A stretch of DNA of 64,000 bases from Catajapyx aquilonaris (GCA_000934665.2 JYFJ02001946.1:1-64000), one strand, 5' to 3'. Positions 45,787 to 64,000 are shown, numbered from the stretch's first letter. The notes: generated by a model from the letters alone, not told the origin. Numbers and translations are program-made.

Positions 45787-46420
45787 AATAAATAACATAA
45801 CTATTATGTGAAATTTTGTGACAATAATACAGACTAGCAATCAATAAGAACTCCGAAAAAACCATGCCATCACAATCTAAACGTGATACTGCGACCTTAT
45901 TAACATATTACCAGCAGATATGCTCATGGACCATGGCTCCTAACTGCATAAATTAAAAGCATATTAAGCTAAATTGTGTAGCATTACGTAGCAAGCAACG
46001 GCATTTAAACTTGACAATTATGAAGGATTAGAGGGAGAAATTATTTTTGTACCTATCTTTGGAACTGCTGTGGACTTCATAACCCTACTGTTAGGCCTAC
46101 ATATCCATAATAGGCTACTTCATATTGTGCCTGTGTGTGCATGACGTACTTTTCTGATGCGTACGGACCAGCTCCAGTAACTTATCAACTGAGGCGAAGG
46201 CAATAAAAAGAGTTAGAATCTTCTGGCATCATCAGAGTGAAATACAGTAGCCAAATACAGTAATAAGGACGGCTTACTAAATCAAAGATGGCGGGTGATT
46301 TTCACCGAGTGACGCGGGCCACCTGTCGGCGACGGGGAGAAAACAAGACATATTGGAGCACTGTTCGAAGAGCGATCGCTTGTAGATCGAACGCCGCCTG
46401 TCCCGACACCACCGACGACG

Positions 46421-47219
46421 ATGGACGCCAGCGACGCCTCCTTCGACGACGCCAGCAGCGAAGGGTAAGGACCGGGGATTGCGGGGGACGCTCTGTACGA
46501 GCTCATTGGGCCTCCGGTTTGGGTTGGCAGGTCGGACACTACCCTGGGCGACTTTGACCTTGGCGAGATCGACTCATCTGCTTTGGTTGACCCGACGACT
46601 CCGGAGGATGAGGGTCAGGATGAAGAGGTCGAAATGGGCGAGGAGGAGGAGGAGGAGGCGTCCGGTGTGATTATTGTTGACCCGGTCGAAATCCCTATCT
46701 CGCGGGAATACCACTCAAGGATGAGGTGAGAGGGGGAGGTCATTGACCTCTGCCACATAGTGTTCCATTGGAAGTGTCCGTCCCCTCAGTGGCTACTAGG
46801 CTGCAGCTATTCTTGACACTATTAGCTTAGCTGATATTGGGTCTCAGCAAATGGCGTAGCCAGAAAAGCGGAGTCAGGTGCATTTAATGCAAAGTGAACA
46901 TACCATATAGTAATATCACAGTGTAAATGTGTAATTAATGTGGCCTCTTCAACAACAGCAGCAGCGGCAGCAGCAGCAGCAACAACAGTAATAAACTACA
47001 GGATATTGATTAACCTTAGCATTAGTTTCCTGCATTTGTGAAAATGTATGCATCCTTTCCAGTATTGCAGAACAACAAATTCGTGATAATTGCAAATGCA
47101 AGTAGCCCATAAGATTAGTGTAAGTATAGCTGTACGAAAATAACAACTTAAAAATAAGCACCTTAATGCAAAAAATATTGCTATCCACTGCTGACACGTC
47201 CATATTTATTATGATGATG

Positions 47220-47273
<54 letters not shown>

Positions 47274-48935
47274 GAAAGCCATGTACAGTACATTCTCTTG
47301 CAGGAATAATAATGAGACCCTTACCGTTTCAGAAATGCTCCTGTGGTGGTGGCAACCATAGAAGAATTTGTGCTTAGTGTGGTGCAGGCTTTCTCGGCCG
47401 GGACTGCTCCGGTTGTCATCGTGCAGAGCAGACTCTGCACCTGGGAGAATGGAGCCCCCACGTATGAGTGCAATGCCACAATATTATGCCAAACATTTAT
47501 CCCATTTATACTGTATACACAGCCCGTTTGGAAACGAACCTGCTGTACTGTACCACGCACGTCCCCGACACCTGTACATGTCCTTTATATTGTTAAATTT
47601 CCCTTTTTCAGACCACTTCTTTCCCGAGTTTCTTTCGCAAGAACGCGGAGCAGGTGTCATTTTGCTCTCCTGATACATTACCTAGGTAAACTGCACGAGA
47701 TTGCGCAGAAGAAAGAAATATGCACTCGCAGGTAATGTGTGAGAGCGGTATAAGTACGCATTCATTATTTCATGTGTTCAGTGCATCTCCTTCCTCCCAG
47801 GGAGTTTTTCTACCGGTCAGCCAGAATTTTTGGCAAGCAGATGGTAGTGGACATGCTGACCAGAGAGGCCAGTTTCGTGTTGAGGATCCCAAGGGCTGCT
47901 CTTCCTCTTGTGGCCACTGCCAAAGGGCTTGTGGCTGGCGACCTCGTCTTCATGGACAACCAAGGGACAATCATCAACTGCAAGGAAGCCCAAGGGAGTA
48001 TGTCTCCGTGCCAAGTACAGTTGCGGAATTGAAATTTTGAAATAATACCGGTATCTTATTATTAATTCACAGGTGTTCTCATACCGAGTGACATCGAAGG
48101 GATGATCGTGTTGCAGTCTGCAGCACGGTTTGTGCTTGTGATTGAGAAAGACGCTACCTTTCAGCACCTGATTGCTGAAAAATTCTTGGAGCAATGGGGG
48201 CCACTCATTATGATTACGGTACGTTTGCATTATGGGGTGTACCTTACTACATCTGCACAATCATACAAATTCCCTACCAATTATTTCGTCTCGCACGTCG
48301 CACTAACCTGGTCTCCGAACACTATAGACACCCATGTTGACTCTCTGGCTTTTCAGGGTAAAGGATATCCAGATTACGCCACCAGGAGATTTCTCCGGAT
48401 TGTGTGGGACTACCTGCAGATTCCAGTGTTAGGACTGGCAGATGCTGATCCGTGTGGTGCTCACATACTCAGCATTTTTAAATGCGGCTCAGGCGTAAGT
48501 TTGTCATTTGGTCATACTGATACGCGGTATGACAGTAAGGTGATTTGTTATTTTGGGCAGGCCATGGCCTGTGATGTGGACGTGTTGGCCGTACCTTCCC
48601 TTTGCTGGCTGGGATTCCTTCCAGCAGATGTAGAGCATCTGAAGCTGCCCGAGACGGCCCTCATGCCCCTCACCGACAAGGACATACAGGTTGCAAGAAG
48701 TTTGCTTCATGGCCCCTTGCAGCACATGCCTTCGTGGAAATTGCAGGTTAGTGCATTTGTGCAATGCTGTACATTCGACTGCATCGTCTGACCTTTTTTT
48801 TTCAATCGCCAGATCAAGAAACAGTTGGACCTAGGATGCAAAGCGGAGTTGGAAGGGTTGAGTTCGTTGTCGCCAAACTTCCTGGGCCTCAAGTATCTCC
48901 CGTTCAAACTGAAACATCAAGACTGGTTGGTGTAA
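46421..48935 (+). CDS. SPO11: Meiotic recombination protein Spo11, multi-exon
   Basis: Catalytic-Tyr motif CTR|REFFYR (47801 exon). AKGLVAGDL. Toprim VLVIEKDATF, ITG|KGYPD and DADPCG. C-terminus KAELEGL...YLPFKLKHQDWLV* (stop 48933-48935). Exons join in frame from the ATG at 46421, though the start is less certain. Confidence 0.95.
47221..47273. repeat. (TTG)n microsatellite in a Spo11 intron
   Basis: Direct reading. Confidence 0.95.
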
Positions 48936-49339
48936 AAAAAGTTGTACAAATTAGCATCGTTGATGTTAGTGCGACAGTGTTCACGTTATGTTTGCTGCTG
49001 AAATTAGCAGTGTTGCGCCTTGAAAAAAAACATTATGTTTTGTTATGTCTTGGATTCATGTTGGATAATTTTTTTGCAATGAAAGTTTTGTTGTTCAGTC
49101 CCGCAGCCTTTTTTATTTCTGAAGGAGGGCCGCAGGAAAGTGCCAGAGGCGATGGAAAATCTATTGGATATGGTATAGCCCCCAGAGATGTCAGGTTTCC
49201 ATTAGCAAATTATGACACGAGAAGTTCTCATCTCACATTATTATTTTATTCTCATTCAATTATTGCTCTCTTAATCTATACTATAATAATACTCAGTCCT
49301 AACACATCTAACATGTTATCATTCTGTTACTCTCAATAA

Positions 49340-50050
49340 ATTCATTCTCTTGTCGTCGTATACGTATGTCGCTCAATGCTGCACTTCTTATCGCTGAGTC
49401 TCGAGCTCTTCTTTTTCTTCTCCTTGGCCTCCTTGGCCAGTCGGGGTGAGTCTGTTTGTGCACTTGTCCTCTCACAGCAACAGCTACATCATGTATCATA
49501 ATAATCAACCAAGAACCAGTCGCTTTATTTCAGTCTCTTTTTTTTACTGCCCGCGAAGTCTTTTATCGCTTTTCCACGTCCTCGACAAATGGTAGCCTGC
49601 GTTCCCTCTGGCTTACAAGTTAGTCTGGTGTTTTATTGAGTTGCCTAGGTGTGGCACTCATTGACTCGTCACACTCTCCCCCTCGATAAGGGCAGGTTGC
49701 CCTCGAATCTCGTGGAGTAGGCGACACGGGACTTGTCACTTCACTAACTTGTACCAGCACTTGCATATTTTTCAAAATTCCACAAAATAAAACGCCGCAA
49801 AAAACATAGCACGTACAGTACATGTTCATTAACACATAGTGGATGGTGCGACAATATTCGGACATATTTTTGGTACCACTTTCCGTCCAATATGTGAATG
49901 TCAGATATCGTAGAAATATTTTTCATTGTCCATGGATGATAAACACTTTTAATTCCTTTGAAGAGAACAGTAAAACAGTTACGAGGCTCTCTGGAATCAA
50001 TTATGTGGCATTTACTGTCGCTTTATGAGGTCCAATAAGTACCTGTAACA
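49340..50050 (-). pseudogene. Degenerate Cys/His-rich spliced ORF (copy A); paralogue at about 52880-53490
   Basis: Shared peptides YHPWTMKN/YHPCTMKN, CRTIHYVLMNMYCTCYVFCG/CRQTIHHVEMDMYCTCDVFCG and ATCPYRG/VSCPYRG. Stops and frameshifts in both copies. Confidence 0.45.
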
Positions 50051-50646
50051 CCCCATCTTATTTCATCTCTAAGAAACATGCAAATACAAAACAGGAATCC
50101 TACAACGATATTTTCAACATCAAACCTTCAAAAAAATCATTGTTACAACAAATTCACAAGATGTATTATCAAGACAACATTCGGACATGTGTTAGAACTG
50201 AGCATCTCAAAAATCACAAACAACATCTGTGCTCTTGTCGTGACTTACCTATATCATAAACAAACGAATAGTTGCCAATACAAGACACAGTTTACTAAAA
50301 ATGACCGAAAAAAGTACCGGTAATGCAAGTGTACAGTATAGATTTTGTTTTGAGTTGATTTTGAGTTGATTTCTTTGTATCTTTCCTACCCCGAAGGCAT
50401 GTCCGGCTTGGGAAACTCTGAGGTCATTAGTGTTGCCTGAGAGCCATGATTTTTTTTGTTCGCAGCATACTACACCCTCTTGCCTGATTGATTCTTCGAT
50501 TCGCTTCGATCCTTACCAATTACTTTGAATGCCCTACGCTCTCTCAAAAATTTTCTTCAATATTATATTGTCAAATCCCGCAAGATTTTAAAATTTGAAC
50601 TTCGTGTTCGAAGATCCCTTTACCTTTTTTTTGTTCTGTATTAGCG

Positions 50647-51033
50647 TTAACCAAAGTGGAAGGTTGGTATTTCGATTTCTTCATTATCTTGGTCCTTGAA
50701 TTTAACCCACCCATTTTCCTTATCCTCCTGTACTCCAGCTCTTTCGCAAAAGTTTCCCCCCAAGATGGGGACTCCGTCATAGCCCTTCAATATGTGAAAT
50801 TTTACCGCTCTCATTGACGTGCACCAAAAGAGCTGGAAAGTTCTAACCGCTGCTATTTCGTATGCTGTCCCTTTGACAAGCAAAATCGTACCTGTCAGCT
50901 CATCCATTTCGGTACCGATGTTCATAGCCTCCCAGCATCTGACCTCACGATCCGAGATGATCGAATACTCCACAGTGGTGTCGATAGTTAAACAAATGTT
51001 CAATTTTGCTTGAGCTGTAATAGCGGCTGACAT
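50647..51033 (-). CDS. Stand-alone retropepsin-like (clan AA aspartyl protease fold) protein, 128 aa, copy 1
   Basis: MSAAITAQAKLNICLTIDTTVEYSIIS...FHILKGYDGVPILGGNF, with hydrophobic-D-T-x, SIIS and ILG-x-N-F retropepsin motifs. GT-AG intron 51044-51155 lies just upstream of the ATG. Confidence 0.72.
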   Translation of the reverse strand: MSAAITAQAKLNICLTIDTTVEYSIISDREVRCWEAMNIGTEMDELTGTILLVKGTAYEIAAVRTFQLFWCTSMRAVKFHILKGYDGVPILGGNFCERAGVQEDKENGWVKFKDQDNEEIEIPTFHFG

Positions 51034-51692
51034 TTCTATTTTTCTGAAACAAACCCAACAAAAAAAATATGAATATCGCTTGTTCAACACAGTTTTTTGT
51101 TGAGCAAGAAACCACCTTCGTTGCAATAATTATTCGAAAGTATAACATACTGTACCTTTTGAGATTCTCACTATTTTTGGTTTTTGTCCTTATAGGCAAT
51201 GTTGTTAATTATTAACAAAATTATTCTATCCAGCTAAAGTTTCGTGGTGCGGATTTCACGACAGTCTCTCTGGATATGACCTGTAGGCCTATACCATATA
51301 CGATAGGTATAGTTTCTCAATATCTATAAGCTTAGTAATTTTCTTTCTTTCTTTCTTTCATTCATTCTTCTATTCTTTCCTTTTTCTGTCTTTTCATTCT
51401 ATTATTTTTAAATTTTTATTCCTTTCATTTCATTATTTCATTCTTCCCTTACCCTATTCTACGCCGAATTACGTAAGTTATGCAACTCTTCTGTCGCATG
51501 TCCATTGTTCAAGGAGTGATAGCAAACCAAAAATAAATCTCCTTCGTAGAAATAAAAGATTTTATTGGCACCTAGCAACTGGGTTTATCCCCCTCTTTCT
51601 AATGTGATCTAAATTGATCTTTTTTGGTTCACCGAAATTTCCTGTTATTGTTTTTATACCAACCTCATTTTCTCAATATCAATATTGCCATA

Positions 51693-51838
51693 TTCATCAT
51701 CATCATCATCATCACCATCACCATCACCATCACCATCACCATCACCATCACCATTCACCACCATCATCATCATGATCATCATGATCATCATCATCTTCTT
51801 CTTCTTATTCTTCTTGTTGCTGCTGTTGTTGTTGCTGT
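51693..51838. repeat. Compound trinucleotide repeat (CAT/CAC, CTT, GCT/GTT)
   Basis: Direct reading. Abuts the start of duplication unit B. Confidence 0.9.
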
Positions 51839-52099
51839 TGCAAGAGGTTTGCTTCATGGCTCCTTGCAGCTAGAGACTAGCAGCACATGCCTTCATGGAA
51901 ATTGCAGGTTAGTGCTGCATTTGTGCAATGCTGTATACATTCGAGTGCATCATCTGACCTTCATTATTTCGTCGCCAGATCAAGAAACTGTTGGACCTAA
52001 GATGCAAAGCGAAGTTCGAAGGGTTGGGTCCTGTGTCGCCAAACTTCCTGGGCCTCAATACCTCCCGTTCAATCTGAATCATCAAGACTGGTTATTGTA
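51836..52099 (+). pseudogene. Duplicated, decayed 3' end of Spo11 (end of the penultimate exon, intron and last exon)
   Basis: Matches 48690-48935. Carries a 14-bp insertion (ctagagactagcag) and further indels. No 5' exons. Confidence 0.88.
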
Positions 52100-54229
52100 A
52101 AAATGGCTGTACAAATTATTAGCACTGTTGATGTTAGTGCGACAGTGTTCATGTTATGTTTGCTGCTGAAATTAGCAGTGTCGCGCCTTGTAAAAAAAAG
52201 GCATTTTGTTTTGTTATGTGTTGGGTTTATGTTGGATTATTATTTTTTGCAATGAAGCCGTGTTGTTCAGCCCCGCAGCCTTTTTATTTCTGAAGGAGGG
52301 CCGCAGGAAAGTGCCAGAGGCGATGGAAATTTCGATTCATCCAAACGAAGCCATCATAAAGGATCCAGAAACGAGAGAAAGCACTCCAACACTTATAATT
52401 CATAACTGAGTGCACAGCGACTGCTGCGGCTGGGAATACCTACGCTCTCGGCTTTGTATTGTTAGCGCTAGCTCAAAATGGTTGTACTCATCATTCAAGC
52501 ACAGTGAATGTGGAAGGGTCATACGAGAACAGCACACAAATGCTGTATAGAGGCTCGACAGTGTTGTCGAAGGGCTATTTGAGGCTGAAATTACGATATT
52601 GTGAGACGGGATGTGACAATGTAAAATGGCTCAGGCGCATTGATGCTTGGTGGTAGAAAGATCATTCCTTCAATCAAATAAGAGCTTATGAAAGTAGCCA
52701 TCAATAATTGGATTTGGTCTAGCCCAGAGGAGTTTTAGGAGCAAATGATGACAAGACATCAGTGTTATTATCACACATTTATTTGCATTATATCTTTCCG
52801 TTGCTTTCTTAACCTATAGGCTACTAATAATACCCAGTCCTAGCACATAACCCTCACATTATCTTTTACTCTCAATTTCCCTCTATTGTTGTCGTGTACG
52901 TCGCCCAACGCTGCACTTCTTATCACTGAAGCTTGAGTCTTCTGTTTCTTCTTCTTCATCATCATCTTCGTTCTTCTTGGCCCTCATGGTCAGTCGGGGT
53001 TTCTGTTTGTCCATTTGTCTTGTCACAGCAACTGCTATTATAATAGCCAACGACCTGTCGCTTTATTTGTCTCATTTTTATAGCCCACAAAGTCTTTTAG
53101 CACGTTGCCACAATCATCCTGGACACATTCACATGCTGACTTATCTGGTGGTCTGATGGACCCTCTGTAAGGACAGCTCACCCTCGAAACTGCACTTGTA
53201 TCACATGCATTTTTAAAAAATCCACAAAAAACATCGCACGTACAGTACATGTCCATCTCCACATGGTGGATGGTTTGACGACATATGCTATTTTTGCGAC
53301 GGTACCTCATTCAGTCCAATAATAATAAGTGAGCGTCAGATATTGTGGAGACATTTTTCCTTGCATTTTTCATTGTACATGGATGATAAACACGTTTAAT
53401 TCCTTTGAAATAGAACAGTAAAACAGTTATTAGGCTCTCTAAAATCTTTTATGTGGCCATTACTGTTGCTTTATGAGGTCCGATAAGTACCTGTAAGATC
53501 TCAACTTATTTAACCGTTAATAAACTTGCAAATATACAGTAAAATTACAACTTTAGAACCATTTTCAATATCAAGCATTCAAAGAAATCCTCGTCACAAG
53601 AGGTTAACGATATCATTAATAACACAATATACGGACATGTGTTAGAACTGAGTAGGCCTATCTCAAAACTTAATCGCAATGAACATAATTCTGTTCTCTA
53701 GACGTGACTTTACCACTCATAAACAAATAAATTATTTATCAATACAAGATATAATTTACTAAAATTACCGAAACAAGTAATGCAAGTACAACATCGATAT
53801 ATATTTCGTTTTCACTTGTTTTTACATCCCATAACTAAGTTAAAACATGCAGCTTGATTAATGACAATGACAATAATTTTATCCATGTTGTAAATTCCTA
53901 ATGTTATAATAATTCTTTTAAAACTAATATAAATACCAACTTGCGTTAACATCTGCTTCAATTAAATCAATAAAAATATACAGAATGAAGTTCAAAGTAT
54001 TTATAAACCATACAATATCTCTGTGAGTCATAAACATACTGCCTGCAGTGTTACTTTTTCTGCATTACAGAATATAATAATTTGACTGCTTTTGAATTTA
54101 GTTTGTAAAGAGATCAATAAATCAATGAGGACATAACAGAATTTAAAAGTTACCCTTGGTATTAAACTATACCATGTTTGTTATGTGTGCTTAAAGATTT
54201 TTAAATTTCAAAAATTATAGCAGCCTAAT

Positions 54230-55320
54230 AATTAACGCCTCCTCATCATTCTCGACTGTGTCGCAACATCATACGAAATCGGGTCTAAACTTTAGAATTT
54301 AACTGTCGAAACAATATTACCAAGTGTTTTCATCATGAGATTATCTTCTGGGAACAACATTTCAAAAATGTCTTCATCGTGAGAAGTACAGTATGTTGTT
54401 ACTTTCTGTCTTCCCAATTAAAGTTTCAATTCGTCCCCTTGTCGCTCATTAAATTTTAGCGTAATTATCTCTGCTTGGAAATGTAACTGTTTGGAAAATA
54501 ATGATAGCCTGTTTATGACTGATTCACATGCCCACAAAATATTAATATTTCCTTAACCCACATTAATATTTCGAAGAAAAAAAACAGCTACAGGCACTAC
54601 ACTACAGAAGACACTGTTACACTGCACTAATCAAAATTCTTCCAACTATCCCACTACAACTCAAAATACCCAAAAGCTATGTCTATAGAGGACAAGTTCA
54701 ATACTTTGTCGTCCTGCACTATCTCCCCTGCTAAATAAGAAATTACTTGTGATAATAATAAATGGAGAATAATTATTCCACTATTCAATATTTTGAGCTA
54801 CTCTTGATAATCAGTATAATTATTTAAAAACTGACTTGAATTCACCTGTCATCAGATAACTTTACTAAATAAAATATCTTGGTTTCATCCCCCCCCCCTT
54901 CTCTAAACCAGCATAAACTTCTCATTCCCGAGTTTTCCTCAAAAAATAATGAAAGAGATTATGCATTAGCAAGAGACCAAAAAGTATAAGTTAACTATAA
55001 ATATATTACCCTTCATTATTATGACTTCTGAATTTAACGAAGACTCATTGAGGAGTGCTCCCATAATGAGGACTCTTTCAGTCCGTCTGAAATATTGGTT
55101 CTGCTGGATATCTAAACCCGAGGGTTGGCATCCAGACGCACAGCAGTCAATTTTTGTGACGTATGCAGTTAATAATTTTTGCATGACCATCTCCGAAAGT
55201 CCATCCAGCTAACAACACCGTAAAAGGGTGGTCAGATTGGAATGATGGTGCCTCAGCCCACTTCTTATAATGGAATCCGAGACAATGTGTAGAATCTGCT
55301 GAAGGAAGACATTATTTGAC
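54230..55320 (-). pseudogene. Decayed multi-exon coding remnant, weakly LRR-like
   Basis: Minus frames with isolated stops: HSNLTTLLRCC*LDGLSEMVMQKLLTAYVTKIDCCASGC and DEDIFEMLFPEDNLMMKTLG. Splice-like boundaries. Confidence 0.3.
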
Positions 55321-55689
55321 TGGCAGGATAGAGTTTGGCAATTTTAGGAAAGGGAAACACAGGATAAGCGATTCATTGCCAAGTTTAGAGTAACTCTGGA
55401 GTGGGGGGGGGGGGGGGCGGGGNTGGGAGTGATATCATAGGAAATGAAGAAGAACCAACCCAGTGATCGTTTATCAATACATTATTATATAGTGTGGTTG
55501 ATGAGCGATAATTGGGATGTATTTTATAATCCCACTGAATATTATTTTGTTGGTTGCACAAAAAATATCATTACATATTGGATCTATGAATGATTCACTT
55601 GCCCTATTTACTCAAATCTAATGCGTGCTTTTTGGCATTAAAAATATTCGAAAATGAATGAAATCAGTCTTACCATTAGGCATAAAGCA

Positions 55690-56335
55690 TTCTACCATAT
55701 AGGTAACATTTCACCACTTAAAACTAGAGGTGAGACTTAGATTTGCTGGCCACTTATATGTGAGCAAATACGGTATATTAAATTAATGAAGGGAAAAAAT
55801 TTTAACATAAAAACCAGTCTTGAACACACTGTTAATTCGAATCTAAGTCTCACTCTTTGGCTTTAAAAAGTCGGGCAAGAAATGGATTCTAGCATATGTA
55901 ACATTTTCACCACTTAAATCTAGGAGCGCGACTTACATTTGGGGGCGACTTGTATTTTTGAGCAAGTACGGTATATAAAATTAATGAAGGGGGAAAAAAT
56001 CAAACTTAAAAAACAGTCTTGAACACATTGGGTGGAATTTTCTCCCCACTGCCAGTTACTGCTAACTTAGCGGTACCAACGAAAATTCGACCCATTAATT
56101 CGAATGTAAGTCGCACTTTTTGCATTTGGGGAAATAATGGGGATCAGTCTTAAAATGAGGTAGCATGCAAAGCATTTTACCATAGGTAACATTTCACCAC
56201 TTAAAACTACTAGAGGTGCGACCTAGATTTGCTGGAGACTTATATTAGACTAAGCACGGTATACAAAATTAATGAAGGAAAAATCTAAGGCGCACTCTTT
56301 GGCTTTTAAAAGTCGGGAAAGAAAGGGGATAAGTC
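55690..56335. repeat. Three diverged copies of a repeat of about 200 bp resembling pogo/Tc1 MITE ends
   Basis: aacatttcaccacttaaa...gcgactta...tacggtata...aaattaatgaagg at about 55705, 55900 and 56188. Confidence 0.7.
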
Positions 56336-56867
56336 TTTGTTTGCATTTTTGCAACATTTTGTGATATTAGTGATTATGATGCTGTTGAAGTGTTGCTCTG
56401 TGTTGGTCGGCCAAGTGTCCGTTGCTGCAGGCTGACCAAATCAAAATAAATAAAAGTTTGATGATGATGTATCACGTACCTATTTGTGTCCTCCGAAAAA
56501 AAAATATCTCCGCCCATCCCCGGCCCTGCAAAATTATCAACTTCAAACGTCACACACAAAAAAATCTGCTGTGCATGTGAATGCTAGCCCCAATTGTGGT
56601 TAGCTATCTTGTATGTTCCTGGATAACAAATAAGATAATAACAAAAGCAAATTGGTAATTAGTGTTTCCTGAAAGAAAGATATGGTTGCTTTTAATCACA
56701 ATTAACTGCACTCTCTTGCCTGATTGATTATTCGATCCTTATAAAAATTTCTTTTAATGCACAACACTCTCAGAATTTTACTTCACTGGTTAAATCTCAC
56801 ACTTTAAATAATTTTAAAAAACTGAATTTTGTTTTTGTCCCTTTGTCATTTTCTCTCAGTATTCGTT

Positions 56868-57254
56868 TTAACCAAAGTGGAAAATTGGTATTTTGATTTC
56901 TTCATTTTTGTGGCCCTTGAATCTAATACACCCATCTTCTTCATCCTCCTCTACTCCTGCTCTTTTGCAAAAGTTTGCCCCCAAGATGGGGACTCCGTCA
57001 TAGCCTTTCAATATATGAAATTGTTCATATTTCCATGAAGTTCCCCAGAAGAGCTGGAGAGTCCTAACAGCCGCTATCTCGTATGCTGTCCCTTTTACAT
57101 TCAGCTTCTTGCCGGCCATCGAATCTAGCTCGGTACTGAAGCTCATAGACTCCCAGCATCTGACCTCGCGATCCGATATGATCGAATCCTCCACAGTGGT
57201 GTCGATTGCAAAACAAATGTACAATTTTGCATGCGCCGTAATAAGGCCTGACAT
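56868..57254 (-). CDS. Stand-alone retropepsin-like protein, 128 aa, copy 2
   Basis: MSGLITAHAKLYICFAIDTTVEDSIIS...VPILGANF. Same length as copy 1, 90/128 identical by manual count. Homologous upstream intron (donor aaag|gtacagt near 57376, acceptor ttccag|ATG). Confidence 0.72.
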   Translation of the reverse strand: MSGLITAHAKLYICFAIDTTVEDSIISDREVRCWESMSFSTELDSMAGKKLNVKGTAYEIAAVRTLQLFWGTSWKYEQFHILKGYDGVPILGANFCKRAGVEEDEEDGCIRFKGHKNEEIKIPIFHFG

Positions 57255-58339
57255 CTGGAAAAGAAACACACACAAAAATCTGTAGCTATGAATATGAGGC
57301 GTTCAGCGCAGGTTTTAGTTGAGCAAGATAACACTATACCTCTGGTTGCAATATGTTATCCTAATATACACTGTACCTTTTCAAATTCAGCCAATCTTCG
57401 TTTTTGCCCTTAAGAATGTTGTTACACTCTATCCAGAAAAAGATTCTCGGTCAGGACTCCAAGCTAGTCTCGCTGTAAATGACTGGCCGTACAATATGTA
57501 TAGCAACTCAGTATCTTTTAATATTCTTTCTATCTTTTTTTTTCTTCCCTTGTCCTAATATAATTAGGCCGACTTATACGTATGTTATGCATCACTTCTG
57601 TGGTATGGTCCATTGTTCAGGACTCGTTTAATGATCTAATACTCTCATTCACCGAAACTTGCCACCGTTCACACCGCAAAATCTCATTTTCACTACTTGT
57701 CGACTTTTTACTACCCTTGAAATACACTTACTATCTTTTGCTTGATCTTTTGCCTAGCCATAAAGACTTTACGATCCTTACGACCAGAACAGAGTGTGGA
57801 TATTAATATATAATTACAGTACGGCACTCTGCTTCGATTTTACCCCTAGAATATTTTGCACAGTTTAGAATAAAAATTTCATTTCTTTTTCCACAATATT
57901 TAACATTTATGGATATTATTCAGTCGTGACTGAGAACACGACCGTGATAACATACCCATAAATGACCAAATGGAAAAATGTGGGCGTCATTCAGAATTCA
58001 TTAAGAATTGATCATTTTAGTTTTTTCTTCTTTCCTTGGAACTTAAAATCGCACTTTATTGAAATTTAGACAATATCCGACGTCCACTGGCGTCCTCTTT
58101 CAGAAAGTTTTGTACACAAATATCAAATATAATTATAAATGTTTCCTTGTAGAAGGGTTATGTAGCCTTGGAATGACTTTTAAACAATTATATCGAAAAG
58201 TAACAAGACTAGGGCATGCCTATACTTACATTTGTCTTTATTGCATGTGTTTTATTAGTAAGAGTGCTCAAGGCAGTTCTATGATTCAAGCGCCAATATT
58301 TTCCCGAACAATAATATTACGTAGCAAGCAAAATTATCT

Positions 58340-59431
58340 TCATGTGGACCTAAAGACGTTTTTCATCACAGTGACCATGTTGCACCGTTTACAAGTCATC
58401 TCTATTGACCACTCTGGAACAACATACGTGATGCAGTCCAGGGGCATCAGGTCCACCCCACACCGAATACAGTAGTCAACGCTGCCAATGAAGACAATGG
58501 TGTGCCCATATACCTCCCACTCCCAATTCTTGCCCCGAACTGCTTCCTGGCGATTCTTCCATTCCCAGGAGGCCTCCCCTGGCATCCTGAACAGGGTCTT
58601 GCTCAAGGGACCTGGTCTCCGGACGCCAGATTTGAAGGCTCCAACCCGCTTCTTCCGGATGGGTCTAGCAGCAACAGTGGTCCCTTTCGCCATCATTTGG
58701 TGCTGTTGGGTCTTCTTGACATCTTTCCGCTCAACGTACTTGCTAAACGGGATGATGCGCCGATACTTCACTGCTGGTTGTTCATCGGAGGACAGAGTAG
58801 TGTCACGACGCCGTCGATGGGCTAAAACCTTATTCCGATAGCTTTCCATGGCATGACGATCTATTTCAATAGGTGCCTGCTCATCAGAGGAAAAGCCGTT
58901 GTTTGCAGATCGGTGTCGGCTAGCCAGGTATTGCTTACGCAATTCTTTCTTGTAATACTGTATGATATTGGTTTCTGACTGAGTTTCAGCAGCGACCTGA
59001 TCATTGCCAAATGATTTTTCAGAAGAATCAGCCTTTATGCCAGATACTCCTACAGCATTATTCTCGAGCACATTACTCTTACGCCATTGCCTTAGTAAAG
59101 ATGTATCAGTCAAGCTGCTTTGGAATTCAACAAGAGTTTCCTCCGATGCGTCAGTCTTGCTTGCCTTCTTTGTACTCTTTTTGCGCTTCTCAATCTCTCT
59201 AGCTGACTTATTACTGGAGTCACTGTGGCCATCTTCAGGTTTCCCTGCAACTGAATTACTCAATCAACCTCAATTTTTGTAGTACTGTATTACAACATGT
59301 TACAGTAAAATAGGGTCTGCATCTCAACACTATTGTAGTGTAAAAATTAATAATACAGCCTCACCTTCGTTATTATTGCAGAATAATCTTGATAAATATG
59401 GCTGGACCAATCTCCACAAAAATGCAGCCAT
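58340..59431 (-). CDS. Uncharacterised 325-aa basic protein with a C-terminal CxxC-x22-CxxC zinc-ribbon-like domain (two exons)
   Basis: Exon 59365-59431 MAAFLWRLVQPYLSRLFCNNNE|gtgag splices in frame to exon 58340-59250. Ends YCIRCGVDLMPLDCITYVVPEWSIEMTCKRCNMVTVMKNVFRST*. Confidence 0.7.
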
Positions 59432-62146
59432 ATTATTTTGATCCCAGCAACAGCAGCTCAACACGCAACAGGGAATATATTTCTCAGCTGCAGGAGATGG
59501 TCATTTTTCGAGGCCAAATTCTCGCATTCATTGTTTCTCTGTTTAGTGTCCTTATGTCATTATGCATTGTCACGTCTTGTCGTACAGGAACTTAATCTGA
59601 GCCCCGCACAATCACTCGAGACCAATTTCACGCCTATAAAACATCTGCGAGTCAAGATACAGGCACCGCAAATTATTTTTGGTCAGTTATCTCACAGCAC
59701 TTATTAATATTGAAGAACGTGGGGTCTCTATACGTCATACATTTCTCATAAGATTTCAGAAAAGCGCATTGCGTATTTTGCAATATAGGCCTACTGTAAC
59801 AATGAACAATAGGGCGCTACTTTATTTGCGTTTACAGGAAAGTCAGGTAAGCTACAGTATAGTATAGCTCACTTGAAGCCTTGGGACAAACAGTCCAGCC
59901 CATGCTGTCCTTCAAGTCACTAGATTACAACTGCGACTGTAAGTACAGCTTAATTGTAGCCTAGTTAAAATTTGGGAGTTGCAGAGGGGTTTCGTAACAC
60001 AATGTAACAGAAATCTACTTTTTCTCCATTTCAGGAATCTCTGAATCAGCCATATTATAATAAATAATGTCAGGTTTGACAGAGAAATTCAGCGTGACAT
60101 TGAAAGCTTTATGGCTCTTGCAAACCTGACATTATCATGGAAATCACTAACACCAGGAACACCAGCCACCAAAGGCCCTTATTTTGTCATGTGTAGTGTG
60201 CTAGAACGATTATACGATCATTGACGTGCAACCCAACCTACAGTAAGTTATAAGGGTATTGTTAGCTTAGGAGGACGTTCTTTTAATTTGAGGAATCTGT
60301 GAACTAGACATACTAATGCCAGGCGTGTCAGAGGAGCAGCCTTATAAGAGCTTCTTTTCCTTGTAAACCTGGTATTATCATGGAAATCACATTTGGCATG
60401 TGATGATGCGCCAACGTAATGTAAGTGCCCAATGGCCTGTTAGGAAACACAAAATGTACGGGCTAATGTCGCCGAGCTCAGCAATAAAATCACATAACCT
60501 ACTGTACTGTATAAGATGGACCAAATTCAGTCAGTGATCTTCTGTATCCCTGTCTATCAGAACGACCTCGAGTGTACATTTCCTCACCTTAGGCGACTGT
60601 GTATTATAATGATCACTGTTATTGTCAATATCAATAAAGCAATGTCAAACCCACACCGAGAAGTTTCCTTCATCTCCACTCTAATGAACACGTACCGGTA
60701 TAAGAACATCAAGACCATCTCTGAGAAATGATGCTGGGAAACATTATGGCGTAGCCGACGGATAATTTATTGGAATTGGAGAAAAACCTGTTATTTGGAA
60801 ACCGTTGCAAACTGAAAGTAGCTGATTGGAGGTGTCATGAGATGGCCTTTTTACGCATTTTTAAATGAAATTTTTGATAATCGTGGATTGGTAGTTCATC
60901 ATAGCCACGGAGGTCGGTTTGGAGTTAGCTGGTTTTTCTTGAAAAATGATTTTTTCCACAGAAATAATTTTTTAACAATAATATGGCGAGTGTTAAAATG
61001 AGGATTAATATACGTAGATACCAAAAAACCTTAATTTAACACATTTACCATTATGGAAAATATTATTGCATTGGAGCTGGCTTGTTAAGTACACATACTT
61101 GGATCTAGCTGCGTTTGTATGCAGAAAACGAATTTTATGTCATGGATCTAACTGGTTTTGCTTAGGACACGCATTTTTGGAGCCAGTTTACTCCCGGTTT
61201 TGTGCCACACAATATTTGAGTATACTTGGTAGAGGGCATCATAATTATAACAAGGATAAAATCTCGGCCTAGTACACAGTGGTTAGACCTGTCATGAACT
61301 GTAGTTAGAAAAATAATCGAATGTAAATGGGGACACGAATGTCCTTTTTAAATATTCATGCAAATGACTTGTTTTTGCATAAAAAATATCAACCTACCGT
61401 ATGTGAGTATATGGCTTTTTGTTGGTTATCATCATTTCTTCGTTGAAGGTTTGGGTGTGTAAATTCATGTATAAAATGTTTCCTAGTAAAAGAGCTTTTA
61501 ACCAGGAATGGCTTTTAACCTGGAATGGCTCTATAAAAAGAGGAATTGAAAAGTAACACAATATGACATGCCTACTACTTATCCATTCGCCTTTATTACG
61601 TACATGTGTCTTTAATTAACGTCAGTGTTCAAGGCAGTTCCATGATACAAACGGCACCTGTAAATTCTGTCTCTGCATGTTGTGTACAGAATCATTGCAG
61701 ATGCGAGGTCATGGAGAACAAAAACAATAATGCCCATGTTGTGACTCAGCTAAGAAAAGTGTAGTCTACTATACTTTCACTGGCAGATAACATGCAGCAC
61801 AATGAACAGGACTTGAGTAGTTACGTAGTTACGTGTTTTAATTGCCACTGCTGCATATCAACCGGAATGACATATCGAGAACCGTCGAGAACTAAGAGTT
61901 ATGTGCTGACTCCCATAATGGATTATAAATACTGACCGGTACTAAATTTTGCATTATGGGTTACTAAAGGAACCCATAATTTATTGTATTTCACTTTTTC
62001 CACCACCCTTTACGACACCAAAATCGGGTATGGCGAGCGTGCCAGTTTGTTTTTCCTTGTCCAATATTACCTTTAATGCCCCTCATTATACGTATACTGA
62101 CCTGACCTATTATGTCGTTGAGCATATCATCTGAAATCAGCTCTTA

Positions 62147-62273
62147 GGGCCGGTTTCACCGAGCTTGGTATATGATAAAACCAGGTTTCTTTAGGAAAAT
62201 CCAATACAAATAGATAGGGATTTTGAGAAAGAACCCTGGTTTTATCATATACTGAGCTCGGTGAAACCGGCCC
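62147..62273. mobile_element. PIF/Harbinger MITE
   Basis: tta|gggccggtttcaccgagct...agctcggtgaaaccggccc|tta. TTA TSD. Confidence 0.9.
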
Positions 62274-62331
62274 TTAAATACTATACCGAATGAAACCACT
62301 GTTCACCAACAATTTCCTGAACAATATTACA

Positions 62332-62613
62332 TTACATGCAAAATATATTATTATCTTCAATGACATCTTTCATTACAGTGACCATGTTGCACCGTTTACA
62401 AGTCATCTCTATTGACCACTCTGGAACAACATACGTGATGCAGTCAAGGGGCATCAGGTCCACCCCACACCGAATACAGTGGTCAAGGCTGCCAAAGAAA
62501 ACAATGGTGTCCACATGTACTGTACTTCCCATTCTTGCCCTGAACTGCTTATTGGCGTTCTTCCGGCATTCCCAGGAGGTCTCCTCTGCCATTCTGAACA
62601 GGGGCTTACTCAA
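62332..62613 (-). pseudogene. Truncated paralogue of the zinc-ribbon gene (possibly an 86-aa mini-protein from the ATG at 62592)
   Basis: Identical CIRCGVDLMPLDCITYVVPEWSIEMTCKRCNMVTVMK. Upstream homology (to about 62800) is deleted and contains stops. Confidence 0.65.
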
Positions 62614-63110
62614 TGGACCATGGAATAATATATCATCAGAGCAGCATCAGAAGAGTGAACTGTCTCGACGTCTCGTCACCCACACAGTTTGGTACTTACA
62701 AGTAGTTATAGTGTCCCTATGGCTTATATCTCAGCCGGATCAGTCTGATGGGAGCCTATGTCTGCTCTCTTATATACTACGGCAAGATATATTGTATAAT
62801 AAGTCCCCACAATCATAATGACACAAATGTATGTTATGCTATATGCTCGATATACCTAGTCACATGAAAATAATAACAATCAAAAATTTGGCATTCATTT
62901 GACCGACCTCATGCCCTGACTTCAATGTCAGACGTTAGTCGTTTCCGTACATAGACTTATCTTTGGCACGATCTTTCTATGAAGCCAAATTTCTTCGTTT
63001 TCCACTGTAAAGTTAAATGTAGCCTGCTTTAATTTTCATTGTACGTACACCAATAAGTCATCAACGGACAAAATGAGCAATCTCGTTATTTTATGATACG
63101 TGATTCTGAG

Positions 63111-63996
63111 TCAAATACCCAGATCACATGACGATCTGAAGAGATGGCCTGGTATTGAACCAATAGAACAAATAATATATATCGTCTCAATAATATTTTT
63201 ACGCATGCAGAAATGTACAGTACCTTGGTGATACAACCCGGACACCACGAGTTCTTTCAACTCTGTGCAGTCCCGAATGAAGCGCTTGATCCTGGCCCCG
63301 TGGTTCATGCAGGTAATATTAACAAGACTAAGCGACCCCAAGGTGGGAGCGCTTTTTCTGACAGCATTAAACAACGTGTTTGTGTTTCCAGACCTCCAAT
63401 TCCTCAGCTCCAGTTGTTTAAGCCATCTCATGCCAAGAAGCCACTCGGCGGCATGTGGGCAGTTCAGTCCTAAGGCCTCACCGTCCAGCGTGACCCGTTT
63501 CCACAGAGATGGATCTTTCGCCAGCTGTTCCCAAGATTTGCAGACCAACGCAGCTTTTGTCACCAGCTCTTCTTCGGTTAGGTAAGAGAACACCTTCAAC
63601 ATCATCTCAGGAGGAAGCCGCGAAAAGCCCCCTTGAATCTGAAAAGTAATGTGAATGCCATGGTGTGCGTCAAATTATTATTGACCAGTTAGGGATTTAA
63701 CCAGCAGGCAAGTGGCCATAACTTCGCTGTAACTAATTAATGGTGTTCAAATATTTTTCAAATATTGTTTGACTTACGATTACGACTTCCATGCTCTTGC
63801 CCTCATCACTTTTGTTCCTGCTTCTCTTCATATTTTTAGGCCCCTGTCCTTCTTTCTCTTCCCTTACTCCTGCAACATTCACCACACTTCGTCTGCATGT
63901 CTTCCCAACTATTCCAGCAGTTTCATTACCAGATTGGTCTTCAGTGGGTCCCTGCCTCTTCCTACCTGACCTCCTCAATGTTCCAGATGAGATCAT
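63111..63996 (-). CDS. F-box/LRR (FBXL-like) protein; 5' end may extend beyond the window and the 3' end may be truncated
   Basis: Exon 63778-63996 splices to 63224-63638: FSRLPPEMMLKVFSYL...ALVCKSWEQLAKDPSLWKRVTL (F-box), then LKQLEL, LGSLSL and CTELKELVVSG LRR-like repeats. Confidence 0.85.
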
Positions 63997-64000
63997 GATG

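Follow-up and report, generated by a model that had tools for sequence, protein, structure and literature searches.

We analysed a 64,000-nucleotide stretch of the Catajapyx aquilonaris genome assembly (GCA_000934665.2, JYFJ02001946.1:1-64000), hereafter the window, with a focus on two short paralogous open reading frames (ORFs) that an initial annotation had read as domesticated retropepsin-like genes. Both ORFs lie on the minus strand and encode 128 amino acids followed by a stop codon: copy 1 (protein P0001) at 50647..51033 and copy 2 (protein P0002) at 56868..57254, where they had been placed. They open at a shared ATG and use the same start and stop. Their translations align with zero gaps, 90 of the 128 residues being identical (70%, the value given before) and 103 of 128 similar. 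A tblastn search of the window found no third copy.

Three motifs are common to the two proteins, IDTTVE, SIIS, and PILG[GA]NF, and each could be read in both translations as annotated. In copy 1, the codons for I17-D18-T19-T20-V21-E22 occupy 50968..50985 on the minus strand and align with the D-T/S-G-A catalytic loop of retropepsins; the IDTTVE codons of copy 2 (57189..57206, minus strand) have the same DNA sequence, synonymous sites included. The codons for P89-ILGGNF-95 in copy 1 (50749..50769, minus strand) align with the (I/L)LGMxF/W motif of retropepsins, and their counterpart in copy 2 reads PILGANF (56970..56990, minus strand).

Homology between the copies continues for approximately 325 nt upstream of each ATG (62% identity, eight gap events). 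A 12-nt sequence, AAAAG/GTACAGT (the slash marks the predicted splice site), is conserved in both copies, and a pyrimidine tract and an AG precede each ATG. These signals would delimit a candidate 5' intron of 112 nt in copy 1 (51044..51155, minus strand; GT at 51155-51154, AG at 51045-51044) and one of 122 nt in copy 2 (57255..57376, minus strand; GT at 57376-57375, AG at 57256-57255), both predicted from sequence only. In copy 2 this AG directly abuts the ATG, and in copy 1 it is 10 nt away. The unlike phases of the two copies rule out an upstream coding exon, and it is a reasonable reading that the candidate introns, if spliced, sit in a non-coding leader.

Probable remote kinship with retropepsins

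Two unlike methods placed both proteins close to the retropepsins. With the language-model features of the ESM Atlas, copy 1 obtained a best match of 0.95 (176-177 of 256 features shared, recognition 2791) and copy 2 a best match of 0.96 (182 of 256 shared, recognition 2777). The Atlas clusters returned for both copies were retropepsin only, with RVP_2 first, followed by gag-asp_proteas and RVP, and for each copy all 10 of the 10 best Pfam-bearing matches belonged to one retropepsin family or clan. These values were calibrated on shuffled proteins, of which approximately 1 in 100 reaches 0.95 and one third also obtain ten concordant matches. A recognition of 2300 was reached by 9 of 100 shuffled proteins, and both copies lie above it.

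The second method was profile-profile alignment with hhalign, for which the query was a profile of the two copies. Two reference sets were assembled, one of 38 bacterial PF13975 domains from 39 loci and the other of 48 Ty3/gypsy-type RVP_2 domains from 80 metagenome loci; both had been filtered for D-[ST]-G and are uninformative on natural variation of that glycine. Against the bacterial set, the query scored 21.0 (P 0.0035) over 93 collinear columns, with IDTT placed on DTGA and PILGGNF on LLGMSF, and 0 of 300 column shuffles reached this score. Against the 86 domains combined, the score rose to 22.4 (P 0.0015; 0 of 200 shuffles), and the extended alignment covered 116 columns (query 3-124 on template 6-127), with the catalytic loop on fDTGAS, ILG on iLGM, and VKG on anG. 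The ILG motif was aligned in the runs against the bacterial, the RVP_2, and the combined set. In a MAFFT alignment with the 38 bacterial domains, at identities of 8-23%, the invariant columns were D18, T19, G55, and G92, the latter two being the hairpin glycine and that of the (I/L)LG motif. The Asp and ILG are separated by 72 residues here and by 69 in three RVP_2 proteins.

Several results weigh against this assignment. A Pfam hmmscan at E<=10 returned no clan-AA family (0 families for copy 1 and only Cin1_N, E 0.13, for copy 2), phmmer against 1.84 billion representatives found no retropepsin, and PDB sequence searches, run with one copy and with the two-copy profile, listed none. When the bacterial profile was used in hmmsearch, the copies scored 1.6 and 0.8 bits, which 15 and 12 of 1000 shuffles also reached. 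The hhalign run against the 48 RVP_2 domains was marginal, with a score of 17.4 (P 0.026) over 37 columns in the C-terminal part only and 7 of 200 shuffles reaching that score; in global mode, the score against this set was 1.6, and with six truncated RVP_2 fragments as the target, hhalign gave no significant match (P 0.32). The hhalign probabilities were low, at 2-17%.

The structural models belong with these points. An AlphaFold model built from a single sequence had a pLDDT of 37.4 and was unusable. Supplying the 38 bacterial retropepsin rows as an alignment gave a pLDDT of 81.9 and a pTM of 0.72, and Foldseek ranked DDI1 protease domains first for this model (5yq8_A, E 1.1e-4, TM 0.62), with 3s8i and 4rgh next and retroviral proteases thereafter. 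Because the alignment rows are themselves retropepsins, this model is circular and demonstrates compatibility with the fold, not independent proof of it. The structural comparison that the initial annotation had proposed matched retropepsins for the model built on a retropepsin alignment, and the single-sequence model was too poor for it.

These data allow a different explanation, namely that the ORFs are real, selected orphan genes with a fold other than that of retropepsins, and that the D-T..IIS..ILG pattern and the weak profile matches arose by chance. The zero clan-AA matches at the level of HMMER, the low hhalign probabilities, the behavior of shuffled proteins in the Atlas, and the circularity of the only confident model are what such genes would give. 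Chance would, however, have to make two unlike methods converge on one family among thousands, set three hallmark positions in register within 116 collinear columns, and lift the recognition of both copies above the level that 9 of 100 shuffled proteins attain. We consider this explanation rather unlikely. The retropepsin kinship, originally guessed from motifs, gains support from the Atlas features and from profile-profile alignments that outperform shuffles, and it is not seen by Pfam, HMMER, or PDB sequence searches. Provided that the ORFs are genes, the remote-homology statistics on which it rests make it, in our estimate, a likely assignment.

Searches for closer relatives found none for copy 1 in 5.8 billion word-indexed proteins, none for the two-copy alignment in metagenome and viral contigs, and none for copy 2 by tblastn in phage records. 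The exon encoding the Toprim domain of the neighboring SPO11 gene (48066-48788, plus strand), which Pfam recognizes at E 5.9e-30, likewise had no match at E<=1e-10 when compared with the 2129 candidates that share words with it in the 5.8-billion-protein collection, which suggests that the source lineage is poorly represented in protein databases. Because matches are missing even for this conserved exon, the lack of relatives of the small proteins is weak evidence for lineage restriction.

Three other assignments were tried and rejected. The sole phmmer match was a 1444-amino acid protein consisting mostly of WD-type repeats (P0003, E 1.2e-4); its score is summed over seven repeats that match the same 36-residue stretch of the query, and no WD40 family appeared at E<=10. 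The Cin1 repeat match (Pfam E 0.13; PDB entry 2lht, E 0.019) covers GYDGxP..FC..AG only, and a 5'(3')-deoxyribonucleotidase from the PDB sequence search had an E of 0.22; all three matches were dropped as chance. Separately, we came across a plant-type Ty3/gypsy protease fragment (L145) on a 284-bp contig of a bacterial assembly that also holds a Chitinophagia contig, and an 83%-identical fragment (P0004) that NCBI lists under Staphylococcus aureus as a partial hypothetical protein. Each has the look of a eukaryotic contaminant of a bacterial assembly.

An altered active-site loop

Both copies carry D18-T19-T20-V21 at the position of the catalytic loop. Asp-18 and Thr-19 fall on the catalytic Asp-Thr, Thr-20 falls on the glycine, and Val-21 on the alanine, so that the non-canonical D-T-T loop described in the initial annotation is present in both proteins. 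The same observation tells against the retropepsin assignment, as the defining Asp-Thr/Ser-Gly triad is found in neither copy.

According to the excerpted text of PMC11402058, host retropepsin-like enzymes carry D-S/T-G-A, and a grip between the loops holds the dimer together. We infer that a beta-branched residue at the turn of the catalytic loop would be incompatible with catalysis. On the strength of this replacement, the protein would be a poor enzyme or no enzyme: cleavage of peptides is expected to be inefficient because D-T-T-V takes the place of D-T/S-G-A.

The same fold and origin could nevertheless belong to an aspartic protease that is still active with D-T-T-V, in which a dimer bringing together two Asp-18 residues would cut host or element proteins. 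Such an enzyme would account for the retention of Asp-18 and Thr-19 in both copies in alignment with the catalytic Asp-Thr, for the identity of the IDTTVE loop between the copies even at synonymous sites, and for the strong constraint on the hairpin aligned with the flap (residues 53-70, dN/dS 0.03; see below). It would have to function with threonine in place of glycine and valine in place of the next alanine in both copies, whereas the known host retropepsin-like enzymes, as the same excerpt presents them, keep D-S/T-G-A and the loop grip that holds their dimer (PMC11402058), and with a turn residue that we expect to be incompatible with catalysis. We therefore regard continued activity as unlikely, and the protein is taken as probably non-catalytic in the interpretation below.

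In-place duplication and coding constraint

A self-comparison of the window showed how the two copies came to lie where they do. Block A1 (48690..50362) starts within SPO11 and contains the end of that gene, whose last exon on the plus strand ends at approximately 48935, and intergenic DNA downstream of copy 1; block B1 (50422..51358) contains copy 1 together with approximately 325 nt upstream and 225 nt downstream that are homologous to block B2. The paralogue of A1 is block A2 (51837..53823), and B2 (56654..57541) contains copy 2. A1 and A2 are 69-86% identical, B1 and B2 are 71% identical over 955 columns, and the blocks have the same order.

SPO11 itself is recognized by Pfam through TP6A_N and Toprim (47690-48788, plus strand), and the small gene stands tail to tail with it. 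The last SPO11 exon terminates in YLPFKLKHQDWLV and a stop codon at approximately 48935. In A2, the corresponding piece (51837-52100) is a frameshifted copy of this exon that terminates in YLPFNLNHQDWLL and a stop at 52100, out of frame relative to the intact exon (compare 48690-48935), which ends in KAELEGLSSLSPNFLGLKYLPFKLKHQDWLV and a stop. On its sequence, the SPO11 piece of A2 is thus a pseudo-exon that follows the intact SPO11 gene, and the pair is best described from the block structure as a tandem segmental duplication of the SPO11 3' end and the small gene. The direct repeats that flank copy 1 (48690-50362 and 51837-53823) were also considered as long terminal repeats (LTRs); that reading was ruled out, as the repeats hold the SPO11 3' exon.

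Because the flanks are homologous and the SPO11 3' end is itself part of the repeat unit, the two ORFs diverged at their present location, and because they diverged in place, the constraint described next was not inherited from an active element. No other part of such an element was detected. Judged by the host families among its longer frames, the window is eukaryotic, apparently animal DNA: 9 of the 121 stop-to-stop frames of at least 90 amino acids match ordinary host Pfam families (53BP1-type BRCT and Tudor, ATG17-like/RB1CC1, GCM, SPO11, and F-box), and 0 of the 121 match a retroelement Pfam family, so that no gag, reverse transcriptase, RNase H, or integrase family was found. The ORFs next to the pair likewise had no match in Pfam or the PDB. 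The earlier statement that no gag, reverse transcriptase, integrase, or LTR lies nearby is therefore correct for the first three; direct repeats do flank copy 1, but they are the arms of the duplication.

The evidence for selection comes from one pairwise comparison, in which both copies were aligned together with their flanking DNA and their codons were analysed. Identity is 82% in the coding region and falls to 62% on the 5' side and 66% on the 3' side. Gap events number 8 in the 376 columns of the 5' flank and 7 in the 254 columns of the 3' flank (15 in 630 for both flanks) and 0 in the 387 coding columns, where approximately nine would be expected at the flank rate (Poisson P ~1e-4). Identity at the first, second, and third codon positions is 80, 88, and 77%, so that the second position is conserved more than the first and the first more than the third. 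The Nei-Gojobori method gave a dN of 0.168, a dS of 0.370, and a dN/dS of 0.45. In 20,000 neutral simulations of the 69 observed changes (30 transitions and 39 transversions), the frame stayed open in 6.5%; the observed number of amino acid changes was 38 compared with a simulated mean of 46.8 (S.D. 3.2; P 0.0046). This comparison of sequences leads us to conclude that, since the duplication, selection has acted on both copies at the protein level.

The changes are unevenly distributed along the protein. High dN values were obtained for residues 36-52 (0.50), 71-78 (0.64), and 102-116 (0.32), and low values for residues 1-35 (0.10), 53-70 (0.02), 79-101 (0.04), and 117-128 (0.07). The regional dN/dS was 0.03 for residues 53-70, 0.17 for 79-101, 0.84 for 36-52, 0.60 for 71-78, and 1.85 for 102-116, which makes the hairpin aligned with the flap region (53-70) the most constrained segment. 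This dN analysis by region, made between the copies, agrees with the clustering of differences at 36-52, 71-78, and 102-116 between conserved cores that had been noted at the outset. The designation of the genes as domesticated is likewise supported, by the coding constraint after duplication in place and by the failure to find any other retroelement part in the window.

The overall dN/dS is moderate, which counts against a selected function, and at 6.5% the chance that the frame survives 69 neutral changes is too high to neglect; both would suit decaying protease relics without a host function, kept open by luck or homogenized by gene conversion. This we hold to be quite improbable, as both frames run uninterrupted between a common start and stop, the expected indels are missing, amino acid changes are fewer than under neutrality, codon positions are conserved in the order second, first, third, the flanks have diverged in place, and gene conversion raises identity but cannot create an excess of synonymous over replacement change.

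Several other features lie in and around the duplicated units. Approximately 2.8 kb (53823-56654) separate the A and B blocks in the second unit only; within it, three dispersed repeat copies of approximately 130-145 nt lie at approximately 55663-56288 with 75-82% identity, and a single N occurs at 55423. This extra stretch is probably an inserted repetitive element. Microsatellites at the junction of the duplication units, (TTTC)n at 51340-51400 and (TCA)n at 51694-51795, yield spurious frames rich in His, Ile, and Thr. Just upstream of copy 2, on the minus strand, is a 307-amino acid ORF (58343-59263) rich in Lys, Arg, and Ser with a C-terminal CxxC...CxxC. A second copy of its 3' part, 84% identical, lies at 62306-62619 (region 61545-62619), beside an F-box exon at 63114-63674 on the minus strand. 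This frame may be another orphan gene that was duplicated locally; a gag-like reading of it was rejected, as it had no Pfam match at E<=1 and no PDB match.

Elsewhere in the window, three pairs of inverted repeats of 200-240 nt with 95-96% identity and arms approximately 350-550 nt apart (2462-2661/3015-3217, 11841-12039/12591-12789, and 34321-34561/34766-35004) look like foldback or MITE-like elements. No Rfam family was found in 46000-64000.

Proposed role and comparison with known systems

Taken jointly, and with a binding role included, the explanation that we favor, with confidence a little above even, is that the pair are domesticated, probably non-catalytic retropepsin-fold host genes. 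The two would be tandem paralogues of one compact host gene, the entire product of which is a single 128-residue retropepsin-fold domain. Their ancestor was most likely a Ty3/gypsy-type LTR retrotransposon protease (Pfam RVP_2); all other parts of that element would have been lost, and the remaining domain would have been kept by selection since the local segmental duplication. If transcribed and spliced as predicted, the genes may now encode a small dimerizing, peptide-binding pseudo-protease, in which the D-T-T-V loop would no longer support efficient peptide cleavage. The putative dimers could be homodimers or heterodimers of the paralogues, and the variable loops at 36-52, 71-78, and 102-116 may tune what is bound. 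What carries this case is the statistics of remote homology together with a selection test on two sequences.

A more specific role in host defense can be pictured, in which a dead stand-alone subunit would heterodimerize with active Ty3/gypsy-like proteases, poison the shared active site, and block Gag-Pol maturation. If this were true, the tandem duplication and the fast loops (dN/dS up to 1.85, at 102-116) would be traces of an arms race, the tail-to-tail position with SPO11 would hint at germline expression, and the protein would be the first restriction factor to have come from a protease and not from gag or env. We consider this role very improbable.

Should the favored explanation of domesticated, non-catalytic genes be true, a selected bare domain of 128 residues without the catalytic glycine, present as two diverging copies, would mean that the fold has been reused as a non-enzymatic binding or dimerizing module. 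As an instance of a host putting a retained fragment of a mobile element to its own use, it would be modestly unusual. Pfam and HMMER miss the pair through divergence, which suggests that similar genes may hide among animal orphan ORFs. A keyword-level search of the open-access literature found no stand-alone D-T-T retropepsin-like pseudoprotease. In the excerpts of PMC11402058 and PMC7212762, the described host genes derived from proteases (DDI1/2, ASPRV1, PEG10, and RTL1) keep D-S/T-G-A, encode larger proteins, and are treated as enzymes.

By language-model features, both copies stand nearest to the Ty3/gypsy (Metaviridae) protease RVP_2 (PF08284). They share with it the order of hallmarks, which runs from a hydrophobic strand through D-x-x-x..(F/I)IS, a glycine hairpin, and xVLxxxxxD(V/I)ILGxxW/F to the C-terminal strands, and the spacing from Asp to ILG is close (69 residues in RVP_2 and 72 here). 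RVP_2 is, however, a domain within Gag-Pol, accompanied by gag, reverse transcriptase, and integrase and carrying D-S-G-A-S, whereas here the domain is the whole 128-amino acid product, carries D-T-T-V, and has no element part beside it in 64 kb; similarity to the 48 such domains taken by themselves was marginal (P 0.026). The best full-length profile match was to the bacterial gag-asp_proteas family (PF13975; Rickettsia APRc, PDB entry 5c9f), with a score of 21.0 and a P of 0.0035 over 93 columns, and these domains are of similar size. Bacterial retropepsin-like proteases are usually fused to N-terminal segments (frames of 165-541 amino acids) and carry D-T-G-A, and the similarity to them is remote (8-23% identity).

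DDI proteins are, as far as is known, near-universal in eukaryotes. DDI1 and DDI2 are host-encoded and have a retropepsin-fold domain, as is proposed for the present pair, and DDI1 domains gave the best structural matches of the alignment-guided model. DDI proteins differ in possessing ubiquitin-like and helical domains and a canonical active site, as described in the excerpted PMC11402058, whereas the present genes encode a bare domain with an altered loop and have no sequence relatives detected in the searches above. ASPRV1 (SASPase), PEG10, and PEG11/RTL1 are likewise host genes that arose from retroelements and retain a protease domain (excerpts of PMC11402058 and PMC7212762). These are mammalian genes that encode longer, self-processing precursors with Gag-like parts and D-S-G-A; the pair described here has no precursor, no Gag-like part, and D-T-T-V.

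A further group of host proteins bears on the proposed binding role. To our knowledge, NRIP2 and NRIP3 have a retropepsin-like domain, and no protease role has been shown for them. They are vertebrate and larger, and we set them beside the present pair by description only. The association of NRIP3 with DDI1 is a precedent for a retropepsin-like protein that acts by binding another. In the excerpted text of PMC7445249, NRIP3 co-precipitates with DDI1.

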